Source: a virus (Duplodnaviria > Caudoviricetes). From it: a DNA stretch of 64,000 nt. The notes under the pieces are model-generated. The model ran no database searches and was not told where the DNA came from. It saw nothing but the letters and a program-made list of their open reading frames with translations. Positions within the stretch are counted from its first letter, which is position 1. Every line of letters begins with the position of its first letter. The translations under genes were made by a program, and so were the position numbers. The stretch is taken from IMG/VR virus record IMGVR_UViG_3300022074_005559; one strand, 5' to 3'. This document shows, piece by piece, positions 34,043 through 64,000 of the stretch.

Positions 34043-35806
34043 ATGTTCAAACTAGATACACTTACAGTAAAAAACTTTATGAGTGTGGGTAACACCACAC
34101 AAGCCATTGACTTTAACCGCAATGACCTTACACTTGTGTTGGGTGAAAACCTGGACACAGGTGGAGGCGATGCTGGCAGTAGAAATGGAACTGGTAAAAC
34201 CACTATCATCAATGCGCTAAGTTATGCATTATATGGCAATGCACTTACAAACATTCGCAAGGACAACTTGATCAACAAGACCAATGGTAAGAACATGCTT
34301 ACTACTGTGGAGTTTGAAAAAGATGGGCTGGCGTATCGTATTGAACGTGGACGTAAGCCTAATGTGTTAAAGTTCTACATTAACAACAACGAACAAGAAA
34401 CAGAGGATAACGCACAGGGAGATAGCAGAGAAACACAAAAGGCTATCGAAGAACTGTTAGGTATGAGCCATGACATGTTTAAACATGTGCTTGCACTAAA
34501 CACATACAGCGAACCGTTTCTAAGTATGCGCACTAACGATCAACGTGCTATTATTGAGCAGTTGTTGGGTATTACTATTCTCAGTGAGAAAGCAGAGAAT
34601 CTTAAAGAAATGGTGCGTGTAACTAAGAATAAGATCCAAGAAGAAGAGTTCCGTATCAAAGCAGTTGAAGATGCTAACGGCAAGATTACAGAACAAGTCG
34701 ATGCACTCAAACGCAGACAGCGTATGTGGCAAGAGAAAAAAGATCAGGACATTGCGAACTTTAAAACAGCAATCAATGATCTCAGTCATGTTGACATTGA
34801 TGAGGAACTGCGTTTACACACAGAACTTGCTGACTGGCGTGCCTTAGACAATGAACAAACTCAACTACAAAAAGACATTGCCAGTTTGCAAGCACAACAA
34901 AGTCGTGCTGAAAAAGATGTTGCAAAAACACTGAAAGCTCTAGAAGGATGGCAAGACGGAGTATGTCATAGTTGCAATCAAAGCATTGAACATCTAGACA
35001 GTCATAAAAAAGAGATTGAAAAAGCGGAGAAAGAACATGAAGAGTCAAGTAGTTTCCTTATCGAGTTACAAACAGGCATTGGAGAACTCAAAGTTAGAAA
35101 ATCAGAAGTACCAGCAAAACCTAGAACTTTCTACGATGATGTATCAGATGCCCATAACCATAGAACAACCTTATCAACTCTTGAGTCCCAACTACAAAAT
35201 AAGTTCGATGAAAGTGACCCTTACTCCGATCAAATCGTAGATATGGAACAAACTGCGGTGCAAGAAATAACGTGGGATACAATCAACGAACTTACTCGTG
35301 TACAGAATCACCAGGAGTTTTTGCTTAAACTACTTACTAACAAAGACAGTTTTATCCGCAAACGTATCATTGATCAAAATCTTGCATACTTGAATACAAG
35401 ACTAGAAGGATACCTAGGCGCAGTTGGACTACCGCACACAGTGGTGTTCCAAAATGATCTAACAGTAGAAATACAAGAACTAGGCAGAGACTTGGACTTT
35501 GATAACTTGAGCAGAGGCGAGCGTAACAGACTTATACTAAGTTTAAGTTGGGCGTTCCGTGATGTTTGGGAAAGCCTATATCAGCCAATCAACTTGTTGT
35601 TTATCGACGAACTAGTAGACAGTGGAATGGACAGTGCAGGTGTTGAAAATGCTATGGGCGTACTCAAACGCATGAGCAGAGAGCGCAACAAAAGTGTATG
35701 GCTAGTAAGCCACAAAGATGAACTTATTGGTCGTGTAAACAATGTGCTAAAAGTTATCAAAGAAAATGGCTTTACTAGTTACGACACCGATGTAGAGATG
35801 GTATGA
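34043..35806 (+). CDS. gp46: Recombination ATPase subunit (Rad50/SbcC-like)
   Basis: Walker A NGTGKT, coiled coil with CHSC hook, LSRGE signature, LLFIDE Walker B. Confidence 0.95.
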   Translation: MFKLDTLTVKNFMSVGNTTQAIDFNRNDLTLVLGENLDTGGGDAGSRNGTGKTTIINALSYALYGNALTNIRKDNLINKTNGKNMLTTVEFEKDGLAYRIERGRKPNVLKFYINNNEQETEDNAQGDSRETQKAIEELLGMSHDMFKHVLALNTYSEPFLSMRTNDQRAIIEQLLGITILSEKAENLKEMVRVTKNKIQEEEFRIKAVEDANGKITEQVDALKRRQRMWQEKKDQDIANFKTAINDLSHVDIDEELRLHTELADWRALDNEQTQLQKDIASLQAQQSRAEKDVAKTLKALEGWQDGVCHSCNQSIEHLDSHKKEIEKAEKEHEESSSFLIELQTGIGELKVRKSEVPAKPRTFYDDVSDAHNHRTTLSTLESQLQNKFDESDPYSDQIVDMEQTAVQEITWDTINELTRVQNHQEFLLKLLTNKDSFIRKRIIDQNLAYLNTRLEGYLGAVGLPHTVVFQNDLTVEIQELGRDLDFDNLSRGERNRLILSLSWAFRDVWESLYQPINLLFIDELVDSGMDSAGVENAMGVLKRMSRERNKSVWLVSHKDELIGRVNNVLKVIKENGFTSYDTDVEMV

Positions 35807-36834
35807 CCCTAGCACTGGATCATTGGCACATAGAAGTAAGCAGTATTTGCACACTGAAATGTCCACGATGTACACGCATGGAAGTTCCAGAAACACTGCT
35901 TAATCGTCAACTTACATTGGAGTTTTTCCGTACACAGATAGGAGAAACTGCAATAAAAAATATGCGTAAAATAAGTTTTTGCGGTGACGACGGTGATCCA
36001 ATATATGCTAAAGAGTTTTTGGAAATCGTTGATTGGATCAAGCAAATCAACCCAACTATACAGTTGTTGATTATTACTAACGGCAGTTACAAGACTGAAG
36101 ATTGGTGGCGCACACTTGCACACGCTCTTAACGCACACGATGAAATACATTGGAGTTTGGACGGGTGGAATCAAGATTCGAACAGTAAATACAGAGTTAA
36201 CTGTGACTGGGCAAGTATCATGCAAGGCATGAATACATTTGTAGCACACAACACAACAAGTTACACAGTGGTTGCTACTATTGCTTTTCGCTTCAATGAA
36301 AGTAAACTAGACTATATAAAGCAACTAGCGGAAGACATTGGTGTTGACTGCTGGCAACTTACACTGAGTACTAAGTTTGGAAGCAAGTATCCAGATGCAT
36401 ATGGCAAAGATGATTTGCTAGAACCTGTTAGCAAAGACTTAGTTGCAAACGGACACAGGTTTCAAAGAAGGCAACAGTATCTAAGTAACAAAACAAGACC
36501 AGGTGCAGACTTAAAGTCTGTGTTTTGGCAAAGAGCACAAGAGTTGGATGCAAGCGATGAATACCCAGCACTGTGCTACATTGGAAACAAAGGCGTGTTT
36601 CTAAAAGCAACCGGCGAGTTTTATCCTTGTTGCTGGACTGCACTGCGCTATCCGCACAATGCAGATATTATAGAACTTGCACAAACAAGATTTAACTTGC
36701 ATAATACAACAATAGAAGATATAATGCAAGACCCGTATTGGACTACAGAGTTCAAGAAGTTTGACAATCAAGAATGTCGAACAAAATGCGTAAAAGCAAA
36801 ACTACATGATAAACATCATGTAACTGAATGGTAA
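35803..36834 (+). CDS. Radical SAM enzyme with SPASM/twitch-like C-terminus
   Basis: CTLKCPRC, GDDGDP, G.FYPCC, terminal CRTKC. Confidence 0.85.
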   Translation: MTLALDHWHIEVSSICTLKCPRCTRMEVPETLLNRQLTLEFFRTQIGETAIKNMRKISFCGDDGDPIYAKEFLEIVDWIKQINPTIQLLIITNGSYKTEDWWRTLAHALNAHDEIHWSLDGWNQDSNSKYRVNCDWASIMQGMNTFVAHNTTSYTVVATIAFRFNESKLDYIKQLAEDIGVDCWQLTLSTKFGSKYPDAYGKDDLLEPVSKDLVANGHRFQRRQQYLSNKTRPGADLKSVFWQRAQELDASDEYPALCYIGNKGVFLKATGEFYPCCWTALRYPHNADIIELAQTRFNLHNTTIEDIMQDPYWTTEFKKFDNQECRTKCVKAKLHDKHHVTEW

Positions 36835-36844
36835 GGAGTAAACC

Positions 36845-37018
36845 ATGACACACGATCAAATCGTTGAAAACTATGAAGCATATCTCAAAGAGCATGCAGC
36901 ATTTGAAGAAAAAGGCGTAAAAGCAGCGGCAACAAGAGCTCGTAAAGCACTAGGTGAACTTGGCAAACTTGCTAAGACTCGTCGTGCAGAGATCCAAGAT
37001 AAAAAGAACGCAATGTAA
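36845..37018 (+). CDS. Small basic protein, 57 aa (Hc1-like putative DNA-binding)
   Basis: AAGGAG SD, TAATG coupling to next gene, KAAATRARKAL.EL.KLAK.RR.EIQ; below ORF-track cutoff. Confidence 0.75.
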   Translation: MTHDQIVENYEAYLKEHAAFEEKGVKAAATRARKALGELGKLAKTRRAEIQDKKNAM

Positions 37019-38308: not shown

Positions 38309-38731
38309 ATGGAACCTTGGTATTACAATGACAAAATAGTTGATGAACTACCCGAGGGCACTGTAGGTTTTGTATATCTCATTACTAATCTTACAAACAA
38401 TAGAAAATACATTGGCAAAAAACTGGCATCATTTAAAAAAACAAAACCTCCTCTCAAAGGCAGAAAAAACAAACGCCGTAGCACTGTTGAATCAGACTGG
38501 CGTACATATTATGGCTCATCAGACGAACTGAACGCAGACGTCGACAAACTAGGCACAGACAACTTCAAGCGTGAAATATTGTTTTATTGCATCAGCAAAT
38601 CGCAACTAAGTTATGTTGAAGCAAGAGAACAGTTTAATCACAAAGTACTTGAATCAGACGAATATTACAATGGGCACATCCGTGTACGAGTACACGGCAA
38701 AGGCATACTCAATAAAATTATCACAGAATAA
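38309..38731 (+). CDS. GIY-YIG endonuclease (DenA/Seg-like), 140 aa
   Basis: GFVYLITN..RKYIGK, YYGS, EAREQ, YYNGHI. Confidence 0.85.
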   Translation: MEPWYYNDKIVDELPEGTVGFVYLITNLTNNRKYIGKKLASFKKTKPPLKGRKNKRRSTVESDWRTYYGSSDELNADVDKLGTDNFKREILFYCISKSQLSYVEAREQFNHKVLESDEYYNGHIRVRVHGKGILNKIITE

Positions 38732-38764
38732 TTAGGCTATATAGCATCTCAACAAAAAGCGCAC

Positions 38765-39067
38765 TACTCTGTAACAACAGCGGCGAATCGCATGATGCAA
38801 GAATAAACCAACTTAAGGCTAAAAAGATAACGGCTCTGTGAAACAGATACAACCGTTGCTGGACATGCATTGCTGTTATGATGTATGAAAGGTTCCGAGA
38901 TCACTCGTGAAGGCTGAAGTAGGGGGTATGCGGGTTTCCGCCTCCGTGCAGCAATGCAATCTTCTTATAACAGATGACGTACGATGCGAATAGTATCCAA
39001 ATCATTGCTTCACCCGGAGACGGGTGAAGTATGACTCCAACTTCTGCGAATAGAACTTTCGCTTCGC
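38765..39067 (+). ncRNA. Candidate large structured non-coding RNA (family unidentified)
   Basis: ORF-free gap with multiple perfect helices incl. 10-bp long-range stem and 9-bp GAGA-capped hairpin; boundaries and strand inferred. Confidence 0.6.
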
Positions 39068-39125
39068 TCATTAAAAAAATATGAATGAAACGAAGTGAAA
39101 TGAATGAACGAACTTTAGTTCGTTC
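39057..39125. terminator. Twin hairpins at convergence of two operons (putative terminator region)
   Basis: TTTCGCTTCG/CGAAGTGAAA stem and GAACGAAC-TTTA-GTTCGTTC hairpin abutting stop at 39126. Confidence 0.5.
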
Positions 39126-39362
39126 CTAAAGTATAACTGTTTTAGCTGATTTACTAAGTTCTACGTTATCATCAACTACTTTGTTGAAGTAAGCATAATC
39201 ATTACTTGGCATATCAAGTAGTTCTGACATAGAAACTCCTCCTCTCATATACCATGCGATCTTTGCCATTGTCTGTTTGATTTCAGCAACGGTCTTATCA
39301 AATCCTTTTAAGTACCCCTCAATCTCAGGATTGGTTAATGCTAAGAGGCGAAGGCGAAAAAA
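39126..39362 (-). CDS. gp51-like baseplate hub assembly domain, probably expressed by -1 frameshift from upstream gene
   Basis: 78 open codons FFRLRLLALTNPEIEGYL...AWYMRGGVSMSELLDM...TVIL*; first ATG only at 39269; missing from ORF track. Confidence 0.7.
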   Translation of the reverse strand, partial: FFRLRLLALTNPEIEGYLKGFDKTVAEIKQTMAKIAWYMRGGVSMSELLDMPSNDYAYFNKVVDDNVELSKSAKTVIL

Positions 39363-40246
39363 TGCGCTTGGTCAAATGTAAATGGCGTTGAGTATTCGTG
39401 TTTACATTCATCACATGTAGTTGTAACAGTTTTTTCCGGAATGCCTTTGTTTACACTTTCTAGGTGTTTGGTCAGTGTATCATAGAACTGGCGTTCACTG
39501 TTTTTTACAAAGTCATTGATGTGATCTGGATTATCTACTGTAGTGCCGTCTGGTGTAACGATTTGTCTTATACATCCTGAAATGTTTGCTACAGTGTAGT
39601 TAGTCATTGCTGTAAAGATTTCTGCGAATCTATGTTGTTTTTCTTCTGCACTCAAAGTACTGTCATTGACCATCATAACCAATCTGTTTTGTTCAAACTG
39701 TTCTAGATTAGAATGATTAAGTGTTTGGTAGTTCATAGGTTGTAAGTAAACCTGCATGCCTTTGTAATCAAATGGCGTGTTATACAAGTCCATGTTTACC
39801 TTAAGATCCATAAACTGTCTAAGGTCAATCTCATAGTTGTCTGTGTTTTCACACTTAGGACATGTACTGGTGTATTCCATGCCTTCACCATAACTTGCAA
39901 TGCGTATAGCAATCAATACAGTGTCTAAATCTACAATAGGCATATCCCATGCATTTTTTATGTTAGGTACACAACTGTGAATGACGTCAACTACACCTTG
40001 CCCGTTCATAAGTGCATCTGGTGTATTCACTGTTATTTCATCTCTGGTGCTCATAGGCAGAATTGGCAGTTCGCCACTTATAGGCATTTCTACTGACCCT
40101 AGTGAATAGTATCTTCCTTGGCTAGGTAGTTGCACATACACAGCAGGTTGCCGCATGTATTGCTGTAAAGGATTAGACTGATGCTGATTTTGCATAGCTG
40201 AAAGTTGTTCAGGATTCATTGAAAAGTTCTCGGGTACATCGACCAT
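39341..40246 (-). CDS. Baseplate hub assembly protein, gp26-like
   Basis: RQPAVYVQLPSQG.YY, PMSTRDEI, D.D.VLIAIRIASYG, CPKC and CDEC zinc pairs; GGAG SD. Confidence 0.75.
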   Translation of the reverse strand: MVDVPENFSMNPEQLSAMQNQHQSNPLQQYMRQPAVYVQLPSQGRYYSLGSVEMPISGELPILPMSTRDEITVNTPDALMNGQGVVDVIHSCVPNIKNAWDMPIVDLDTVLIAIRIASYGEGMEYTSTCPKCENTDNYEIDLRQFMDLKVNMDLYNTPFDYKGMQVYLQPMNYQTLNHSNLEQFEQNRLVMMVNDSTLSAEEKQHRFAEIFTAMTNYTVANISGCIRQIVTPDGTTVDNPDHINDFVKNSERQFYDTLTKHLESVNKGIPEKTVTTTCDECKHEYSTPFTFDQAHFFAFAS

Positions 40247-62660: not shown

Positions 62661-64000
62661 TGGCAAGACGCGAACGAAGTTTCTTTTTTAACAACAAAAC
62701 TGGTGCACTAAAATCCAAAGGTAAAACCATTATCGCTGCCACAGCAGATAATGTGCTTGAACTACGTGGCGGCAATAGTGGGCAACAAGTTGGTCTTATT
62801 GCTGTAGGAGATGATAACAATATTGATATTGCGATCACGCCCAAGGGCAACGGTGAAGTTAATATTGCAGCAGGAAACCTAAACTACGCCGGAACTGCAA
62901 TAACTGCTACAGGTGCAGAACTTAACTTTGTAGATGGTGTAACTAGTAATATTCAAACACAGTTAGATGCTAAAACAAATAACACTGGCACAGTGACCAG
63001 TGTTGCTGGCACTGGCACAGTAAACGGACTTACACTTAGTGGCACAGTAACTAGCAGTGGAAGTTTAACTCTTGGTGGTACATTAAGTATAACTGAAAGT
63101 CAAATCAGCGATTTAGGTACTTACTTAACTGCAAGTGATATTACTGGGAAACTAAATCTAAGCGGTGGAACCATGTCTGGTGCTATTGCGATGGGCACTA
63201 ATAAGATTACTGGAATGGGCGATCCTACTTCAGCACAAGATGCCGCAACTAAGGCATATGTAGACAGTAATGTTAGTAGTGCTGCAAACGATGCTACTAT
63301 TACAATCACTGCAAGCACTGGTCTTAGCGGTAGTGCATCCTTTACTACAGACCAAAGTTCAGACGAGACTATTACACTAGCTATAGACAGTACAGTCGCA
63401 ACACTTACTGGTGCACAAACACTTACAAATAAAACACTGACAAGTCCAACTATTGAAACAATAAACAGTGATCTTACTGTAACAGGTAACTTAACAGTAA
63501 GTGGAACAACAACTACAATATCAACAACAAATAGTACAGTAGCAGACAGTCTTATTGAACTAAACACTGGCGCAAGCAGTAACGCAAATGACTTGGGTAT
63601 TGTTATGGAACGTGGTAGCACTGGTGACAATGCTATCTTTATATGGGATGAAAGTGCTGATAAGTTTGTAGTAGGCACTACAACTGCAACTGGAGCAAGT
63701 ACAGGCAACTTATCTGTTACCACAGGCACTCTTGTTGCAAATATTGAAGGTAATGTAACAGGTAACGTAACAGGCGATGTAACTGGTAATGCTGACACTG
63801 CAACTGCTCTTGCAACAGCAAGAAACATTGCTGGTCAAAGTTTTGACGGCTCCTCGGCTATTACTATTGCAAGCACAGATTTAAGCGATACAAGTTCTAT
63901 CACACTTAATGCTGCAACGCAAACTTTAACAAATAAAACTTTGGGTGCTACTACTATTGCAGGGCATATTGTTCCTGATACTGATGATGCATACGATTTA
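62660..64000 (+). CDS. Fibre-like structural protein, truncated at window end (MARRERSFFFNNK...)
   Basis: TAATG coupling; frame reads through to ...GHIVPDTDDAYDL at 64000; DAATKAYVD and ERG/DES module. Confidence 0.8.
   Translation, partial: MARRERSFFFNNKTGALKSKGKTIIAATADNVLELRGGNSGQQVGLIAVGDDNNIDIAITPKGNGEVNIAAGNLNYAGTAITATGAELNFVDGVTSNIQTQLDAKTNNTGTVTSVAGTGTVNGLTLSGTVTSSGSLTLGGTLSITESQISDLGTYLTASDITGKLNLSGGTMSGAIAMGTNKITGMGDPTSAQDAATKAYVDSNVSSAANDATITITASTGLSGSASFTTDQSSDETITLAIDSTVATLTGAQTLTNKTLTSPTIETINSDLTVTGNLTVSGTTTTISTTNSTVADSLIELNTGASSNANDLGIVMERGSTGDNAIFIWDESADKFVVGTTTATGASTGNLSVTTGTLVANIEGNVTGNVTGDVTGNADTATALATARNIAGQSFDGSSAITIASTDLSDTSSITLNAATQTLTNKTLGATTIAGHIVPDTDDAYDL

Follow-up and report, generated by a model that had tools for sequence, protein, structure and literature searches.

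What is the non-coding stretch that follows a small GIY-YIG nuclease gene in the virus (Duplodnaviria; Caudoviricetes) of IMG/VR record IMGVR_UViG_3300022074_005559, and does it work together with that nuclease? The stretch takes up positions 38733-39125 (+ strand, ~390 nt) of the 64,000 nucleotides that we analysed, which we refer to as the window. A first-pass annotation, made from the letters of the window alone, had proposed here a large structured RNA associated with the nuclease. Our comparative analysis answers the two parts of this proposal differently: the stretch is a member of a large non-coding RNA family (~330-500 nt) conserved in T4-related jumbo phages, whereas its position beside the nuclease gene seems to reflect a conserved order of genes and not a working partnership.

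Homologous loci were first gathered by anchoring on the baseplate hub protein encoded downstream of the gap. In these loci the gap has 78-89% nucleotide identity at a hub protein identity of 61-64%, and even at a hub identity of ~40% the RNA stretch can still be recognised, with 67-80% nucleotide identity; that is, the RNA is conserved more strongly than the neighbouring proteins. A pattern taken from its most conserved block matches at least 120 IMG/VR contigs, an nhmmer profile places the RNA in 170 of the 200 IMG/VR loci examined, and complete genomes of uncultured aquatic phages (337-347 kb) carry it as a single copy. When the pattern was used to scan genome contigs, 117 of the 120 matches listed were chance matches in GC-rich genomes and three were true, being full-length RNA copies in contigs of metagenome-assembled genomes (MAGs). 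The latter are Haliscomenobacter MAG EUL_031 (148- and 183-kb contigs) and Legionellales MAG SP228, and the contigs are probably those of jumbo phages binned into bacterial MAGs.

The fold of the single sequence has modest z-scores (-3.25 for the + strand and -3.96 for the - strand), and the case for an RNA therefore rests on comparative data. In order to measure covariation, we used a set of 58 non-redundant sequences for the core, with 500 shuffles and slid pairing partners as controls. The derived core structure is 89.4% paired in these sequences and has a covariation score of 0.466, compared to 0.144 for the shuffles, none of which reaches the observed value, and at most 0.113 for the slid partners. 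The covariation across homologous loci that the first-pass annotation had asked for is thereby found. At four positions most of the 58 sequences (42-56) have a G-U or U-G pair; read from the opposite strand, such pairs would become A-C mismatches, which identifies the + strand as the RNA.

The same results bear on the reading of the stretch as a decayed or small protein-coding gene on either strand. A 56-aa open reading frame (ORF) on the minus strand lies inside the gap at 38901-39071, and the minus strand of the window has few stops, but this ORF is not conserved: of the frames that run through the most conserved motif, none is consistently open in 67 non-redundant homologues, the medians are 23-41 aa, and the best frame varies. 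Minus-strand coding was rejected on this ground; compensatory changes and the G-U asymmetry moreover indicate RNA, and the stretch is almost certainly not a coding gene of any kind. The gap is thus free of ORFs, as had been claimed, only in the sense that it holds no conserved one. Nor is it the only long gap of its kind in the window: positions 62661-63120 (460 nt, GC content 0.415) also contain no ORF of at least 60 aa, and neither the RNA covariance model nor the core descriptor, when run on this second gap, gave a match. The RNA core is somewhat GC-richer, as had been noticed, with 0.445 in 38800-38999 compared to 0.404 in the whole window.

The structural features of the RNA, from 5' to 3', are the following.

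38733-38807, + strand: lineage-specific 5' domain, which begins with the motifs UAGGC and AUAGCA directly behind the stop codon (upstream comparison of 27 homologues).
38808-38818, + strand: P1 hairpin with the conserved loop AACUUAA (alignment).
38830-33 with 38853-56, + strand: P2, 99.6% paired, with double changes in three of four pairs.
38837-39 with 38849-51, + strand: P2b, an inner helix UGU/ACA with a conserved A-rich loop, inside P2 (covariation judged by eye).
38859-38892, + strand: P3 hairpin, composed of P3a (38859-60 with 38891-92) and P3b (38864-70 with 38881-87).
38873-79, in the P3 loop, with 38967-73, + strand: pseudoknot PK2 (mutual information; 69-81% paired with double changes).
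38897-901 with 38934-38, + strand: pseudoknot S1, 99.0% paired, with double changes in four of five pairs.
38916-19 with 38961-64, + strand: P4, 99.6% paired and covarying, which encloses S2 and P6.
38922-26 with 38941-45, + strand: S2 (GGGGG/CCUCC), invariant in the aquatic set.
38947-50 with 38955-58, + strand: P6, a GNRA hairpin with loop GCAA.
38974-78 and 38985-93, + strand: unit 1, AUGAC and then repeat X1, UGCGAAUAG.
39008-39029, + strand: P7, a hairpin of 9 bp with a GAGA loop (covariation).
39030-35 and 39045-53, + strand: unit 2, UAUGAC and then repeat X2, UGCGAAUAG.
39057-66 with 39091-100, + strand: stem of the 3' domain around the conserved GARCGNNAGYGAA motif (minimum-free-energy fold, alignment and mutual information).
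39106-39125, no strand assigned: terminal hairpin of 8 bp (terminator scan; strongest covariation in the mutual-information list).

The core runs in the order S1, P4, S2, S1', S2', GNRA hairpin and P4', with the P3 loop pairing just downstream, and because S1 crosses both P4 and S2 it is a double pseudoknot. Mutual information recovers S1, PK2 and the identity of X1 and X2. Upstream of the core, a (U)AGGC(A) motif follows the stop codon of the nuclease gene in nearly all copies. The main type of the 5' domain has two covarying hairpins plus CCCAUUGAGG; the small hairpins of the window copy are predicted. P1 has 2 bp in the window and 4-5 covarying bp in the main type (UUGC/GCAA, AUUAC/GUAAU, GCUGC/GCAGC). 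Downstream of the core, P7 contains G-U pairs in two homologues, which are tolerated only if the + strand is the RNA, and other clades form a different stem around the same GARCGNNAGYGAA motif of the 3' domain. By its score in the terminator scan, the terminal hairpin would end transcription of the baseplate operon, which converges on it from the minus strand; the RNA itself probably ends at this hairpin too.

Several helices that the first-pass annotation had drawn from the window sequence are retained in this structure: its AACGG/CCGTT helix is P2, its GGGG/CTCC arm is S2, and its GNRA hairpin with the GAGA loop is P7. Others are replaced. Instead of the inner TCTG/CAGA hairpin, it is the P2b helix that covaries; the perfect 10-bp stem 38866-75/38949-58 is present in the window sequence only, and homologues form the local hairpin P3b and the GNRA hairpin P6; and the bases assigned to the arms CGAG-ATCA-CTCG and GCGG-GTTT-CCGC form pseudoknot S1. 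The pairing that had been called a possible pseudoknot is supported, although in a shifted register (PK2).

The repeats X1 and X2 are direct and not inverted, are 7-9 nt long, flank P7 and lie 60 nt apart. Their sequence depends on the clade (UGCGAAUAG in the window; GGAUGAU, GUAAGAUA, ACAUGAUG, AGAUCAAG, GACGAA or CGUCAA elsewhere), and X1 equals X2 at the two variable columns in 67 of 67 sequences. The mutual-information list contains no partner in cis that is complementary to X1/X2, and the repeat is not enriched elsewhere in the window. The simplest reading is that the twin sites are recognised by one lineage-specific factor. A variable guide-like segment in a conserved scaffold, which the first-pass annotation had suggested looking for, was not found beyond these short repeats.

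We then compared the RNA with known families and systems. Rfam 15 gives no match in the whole window at the gathering threshold, only noise (E >2) in E-value mode for 38500-39500, and no match on a main-type copy or on the loci of the cultured phages 121Q, XaC1 and PA5oct. A tRNA/tmRNA scan found none, and BLAST of the aquatic RNA against 50,697 phage records had no match. We found no description of the RNA in the literature, where it may be an unnamed candidate in a 2023 IMG/VR survey that predicts ~10,000 unnamed candidate RNAs (PMC10690425). The family is absent from Rfam 15 and from the searchable literature; with the covariation described above, the earlier description of a large ornate structured RNA that fits no Rfam family stands.

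Among known large RNAs, GOLLD, ROOL, OLE and raiA resemble it in their length of several hundred nucleotides, their many covarying helices and pseudoknots, their conserved unpaired nucleotides, their association with phages and their discovery by comparative genomics. Unlike these, the jumbo-phage RNA matches no Rfam model and has twin co-varying direct repeats, and its hosts differ, being T4-related jumbo phages of aquatic bacteria, enterobacteria and Xanthomonas. HEARO/OMEGA systems (IscB, TnpB) also have a structured RNA adjoining a nuclease gene on the same strand. However, a RuvC/HNH protein of the IscB/TnpB kind, transposon ends, a guide segment and an Rfam match to HEARO are all missing here; the fold of the neighbouring nuclease varies, and there are paralogues with no nuclease. 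Membership in HEARO/OMEGA was rejected, as the proteins encoded next to the RNA belong to the GIY-YIG, PF24608 or endonuclease VII families and the HEARO model gave no match. A group I intron with a GIY-YIG homing endonuclease (T4 td/I-TevI) would likewise present a GIY-YIG ORF beside a pseudoknotted RNA with GNRA loops in a T4-type phage, but the present RNA has no flanking exons and is followed by convergent genes. This candidate was rejected as well: there is no RF00028 match at E <=10, a spacer of 20 nt precedes the ORF, and no + strand ORF follows downstream. A type III toxin-antitoxin RNA was rejected because there are just two repeats of 7-9 nt, downstream of a gene of DNA-nuclease type.

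The covariance model of the RNA finds distant homologues in the cultured jumbo phages 121Q (Escherichia coli) and XaC1, which are unannotated, ~470-500 nt each, and all on the + strand.

90332-90783, 192839-193339, 247513-248041 and 326683-327149 of 121Q (NC_025447.1), + strand: four RNA copies.
~14.9, 48.7, 117.4, 209.1 and 303.3 kb of XaC1 (OR258281.1), + strand: five RNA copies.

Pseudoknot S1, which lies outside the covariance model, is kept and covaries in both phages. P4, the GNRA hairpin P6 and the layout of X, hairpin and X are all kept, and S2 covaries (GGAAG/CUUCC, GAGAG/CUUUC), which supports the arm first drawn from the window. The core can be found with a simple descriptor, which has one match in the window, one per 121Q locus and one in the XaC1 locus scanned. 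Each of the nine copies is preceded by an extended -10 promoter-like sequence, which reads TGnTATAAT in 121Q and resembles TGGTAYAAT in XaC1. The 121Q copies outside the site of conserved synteny, which is that of 326683-327149, follow a sigma-factor gene, a structural gene and gene 415. BLAST with the 121Q-type RNA matches 71 phage records, mostly at 4-5 unannotated places each, among them phages of Escherichia, Salmonella, Erwinia, Yersinia, Serratia, Cronobacter, Pectobacterium and Xanthomonas; Klebsiella records match over a short stretch of ~40 nt only. The covariance model has no match on Melnitz, S-SRM01, phiM12, P-HM2, C48C1 and AG-345-F15, a negative that is weak for Melnitz.

Two further observations concern these relatives. 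In XaC1 a conserved module of ~60 nt (CCUGAYUGG..ACCCGUUUAGU..AGUACUUAAGAG..) lies upstream of each -10 box, ~110 nt before each RNA copy. In PA5oct (NC_071039.1) the positional counterpart at 76336-76497 keeps the 5' half only (P2 with GAAAAAGAU, P3 and GGUUCCG) and has no double-pseudoknot core; the tiny coding sequences gp338 and gp339 are annotated over this stretch. PA5oct also has four unexplained RNAs, ncRNA001-004, which are 236-619 nt long, two of them abundant, and were found by RNA-seq (PMC7318152). Like the RNA described here they are unexplained RNAs in a phage of this lineage, but they lie elsewhere (8.3, 22.0, 103.1 and 246.1 kb), and with no match to the 121Q-type RNA profile or the core descriptor they are unrelated.

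In order to place the RNA in its genomic context, the neighbouring genes of the window are given below.

34043-35806: gp46/SbcC-like gene.
35803-36834: radical-SAM/SPASM protein.
36845-37018: Hc1-like ORF of 57 aa (PF07432, chlamydial histone-H1-like Hc1, E 5e-12).
38309-38731, + strand: GIY-YIG nuclease gene, 140 aa, catalytic domain only, downstream of gp46 (PF19835, E 5e-37; phrog_447).
39126-39269, - strand: gp51-like ORF, convergent; synteny anchor.
39341-40246, - strand: gp26-like baseplate hub gene, convergent (PF12322); synteny anchor, in the same arrangement in 121Q and PA5oct.

According to protein family searches on the window, the gene set around the RNA is that of a T4-related myophage. 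Two unknown proteins of 214 aa are encoded between the Hc1-like ORF and the GIY-YIG gene, and beyond the hub come the gene of a 630-aa protein and then the gp20 portal, which is closest (~50% identity) to those of the jumbo phages Phosso, PA5oct, Atu_ph07, 121Q and XaC1. The window sequence is present in many marine viral and seawater metagenome runs. The Hc1-like ORF adjoins the radical-SAM/SPASM gene, both of which are unusual in a phage recombination module. The GIY-YIG gene had been called correctly: the PF19835 match covers positions 1-123 of 123, and G20-Y23, Y34-G36, R88, E104 and N121 are invariant across homologues, which puts the protein in the GIY-YIG superfamily. It has a basic insert and, within its 140 aa, no C-terminal domain. 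A search of PDB sequences, both with the single sequence and with a profile, gave no match. The family is widely mis-annotated as 'NAD synthetase'.

The adjacency of RNA and nuclease was counted over 145 aquatic copies with room upstream. A GIY-YIG ORF on the same strand is directly upstream in 110 of them and within 2 kb, behind one inserted ORF, in 15 more, and in ~15 of the other 20 a PF24608 PD-(D/E)XK protein is directly upstream; taken together, a small nuclease gene of the same strand precedes the RNA in ~97% of the aquatic copies. The PF24608/phrog_244 nuclease ('RusA-like resolvase') occurs in ~17 aquatic loci and never together with GIY-YIG in one locus, and the two interchange in the identical context 'c1 c8 nuclease RNA'. 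The window, 121Q and PA5oct have a common order of gp46, nuclease, RNA, opposite-strand gp51 and hub, and then portal. In 121Q this is the copy at 326683-327149, with a gp46-like gene, nuclease, RNA, an opposite-strand small ORF and hub, a structural protein and the portal. Its nuclease is a T4-type endonuclease VII (gene 594; phrog_423, E 1e-35) on the opposite strand, and that of PA5oct is a PF24608 protein (gp342), also on the opposite strand. By position, then, one small nuclease family per genome sits next to gp46/gp47, as in a resolvase slot, and the slot looks like a case of non-orthologous replacement of a junction-resolving endonuclease, with GIY-YIG, PD-(D/E)XK and endonuclease VII as the putative alternatives. 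That three unrelated small nucleases are found in the slot, with GIY-YIG and PF24608 never together, suggests that the GIY-YIG family is a phage junction-resolving enzyme and not a homing endonuclease.

The opposite possibility, that the nucleases are free-standing homing endonucleases and the RNA gene is their target or landing site, would explain both the adjacency and the turnover of the nucleases. The swap of GIY-YIG and PD-(D/E)XK in identical context is in its favour, and T4-like phages offer known examples of Seg- and Hef-type enzymes that replace one another at a single site. The GIY-YIG gene also occurs in other contexts, directly after ribonucleotide reductase genes in Melnitz and C48C1 and after the endolysin in phiM12, so that outside the aquatic jumbo clade the gene has no fixed place. 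However, compared to Seg-type enzymes the protein has the catalytic domain without the C-terminal, DNA-binding domain, and its context, which varies in cultured phages, is stable in the aquatic clade, where the association persists across very divergent phages down to ~40% hub identity. Furthermore, the family is found in hundreds of cyanophage records, which is more core-like than patchy, and in cultured relatives it is bona fide resolvase families that occupy the slot. We consider homing highly improbable.

The adjacency counts would also favour a partnership, in which the RNA is a guide, scaffold or inhibitor of the adjacent small nuclease, itself without a DNA-binding domain. The catalytic-domain-only protein with its basic insert, and RNA-library contigs that cross the junction of ORF and RNA, point in the same direction. 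Against this, three unrelated folds would have to share a single RNA, 121Q and PA5oct encode the nuclease on the opposite strand, and neither the other 121Q copies nor the single XaC1 copy inspected has a nuclease directly upstream. Close GIY-YIG homologues occur without the RNA, both in Melnitz (69.5% identity; a weak negative) and in 7 hub-anchored loci. Neither do the X types follow the nuclease type, nor is there any guide-like segment other than the X repeats. It is because of the cultured homologues, the opposite-strand nucleases, the nuclease-less paralogues and the GIY-YIG genes without RNA that we read the link as gene order. A partner role is distinctly unlikely. What remains of the nuclease-associated RNA of the first-pass annotation is the association itself, as the RNA adjoins a nuclease in nearly all aquatic relatives, and not the role of guide, scaffold or inhibitor. 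The linkage across genomes, similarly, holds for the aquatic copies; in 121Q and PA5oct the order is kept with the nuclease on the opposite strand, and elsewhere GIY-YIG genes stand without the RNA.

Contigs of low depth map to the stretch in four RNA-library runs, each of a different study, and those of three runs reach into the gap (contigs 38582-38819, 38703-38912, 38632-38782 and 38869-38970). The bridging contigs fit either co-transcription with the nuclease gene or DNA carry-over. They would also be in line with a cis-acting 3' untranslated region or terminator of the recombination operon, that is, a stabiliser or exonuclease block with no function in trans. The RNA does close a transcription unit: it has the terminal hairpin, and in 88 of 108 cases the genes that follow it are convergent. 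On the other hand, a conserved double pseudoknot of 330-500 nt far exceeds the needs of a terminator, the 121Q and XaC1 copies have promoter-like sequences of their own, and three of the four 121Q copies precede genes on the same strand. This explanation is about as improbable as homing.

The promoter-like sequences are equally relevant to the main rival, a replication-origin or primer RNA; an origin RNA was also the alternative named in the first-pass annotation. According to this explanation a promoter-driven transcript forms an R-loop and primes DNA synthesis, as do ColE1 RNA II and T4 oriF/oriG, and X1/X2 are iteron-like initiator sites. Such origin transcripts are similar in size and structured, and they share with our RNA the promoter-like sequences and dispersed copies of the cultured phages and the location near recombination and baseplate genes. 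In the 349-kb 121Q genome and in XaC1, the 4-5 copies are fairly evenly dispersed in one orientation, and all of them follow an extended -10. The ancestral copy has recombination genes on one side and baseplate hub genes on the other; T4 oriF(uvsY) is similarly close to genes 25, 26 and 51. Also, co-varying direct repeats without a complementary partner behave like iterons. Nevertheless, the complete aquatic genomes have one copy only, a T4-type origin does not need elaborate covarying pseudoknots and the tertiary structure of the present RNA is far more conserved than that of known origin transcripts, there is no GC-skew inflection beyond the change of transcription direction, and the window copy ends in a hairpin that faces convergent genes. 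Overall, we regard an origin or primer RNA as unlikely.

The explanation that we favour, with somewhat better than even confidence, is that of an independent, trans-acting RNA gene beside the resolvase slot, with a folded scaffold and twin X sites. Because the copies in cultured relatives each lie behind an extended -10, the RNA would be a gene in its own right. It would adjoin the GIY-YIG gene since both sit at the end of the recombination module, where the nuclease would fill the junction-resolvase slot with different folds in different lineages. The RNA probably acts in trans as a folded ribonucleoprotein scaffold. A single lineage-specific factor would bind both of its X sites, the best guess being a protein that is dimeric or has two sites, and the RNA would be made or bound early in infection, at least in the cultured relatives. 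Several points weigh against this explanation. The homology to 121Q is based on modest model scores (25 bits, E ~1e-4 to 5e-3) in addition to architecture and synteny. The same-strand adjacency in ~97% of aquatic copies is tighter than synteny alone requires. Finally, the RNA-library contigs, low in depth, run from the end of the ORF into the RNA and define no discrete transcript, and there is no clear sigma-70 promoter upstream of the aquatic copies.

It is rare to find a class of large, ornate RNA with strong covariation, and every such class has led to new biology; examples are ribozymes, the guides of OMEGA systems, and the assemblies made of RNA alone that have been reported for GOLLD and ROOL. 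The present family is widespread, as the number of matching IMG/VR contigs indicates, and its function can be tested directly because 4-5 unannotated copies are present in tractable phages of E. coli, Salmonella, Erwinia and Xanthomonas. The analysis corrects the attractive, but probably wrong, reading of a nuclease plus guide RNA. It also indicates that in this phage lineage the junction resolvase has undergone non-orthologous replacement, with endonuclease VII, PD-(D/E)XK or GIY-YIG in its place. More tentatively, as a possibility to which we assign a minor share of belief, the RNA may represent a new large RNA class for jumbo-phage replication or recombination, either as a ribozyme or ribonucleoprotein core that works with the neighbouring junction nuclease or as a primer or origin RNA with a lineage-specific initiator that reads the X sites. 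If either were true, phage DNA metabolism would have a large RNA cofactor of its own, to which no counterpart is known.

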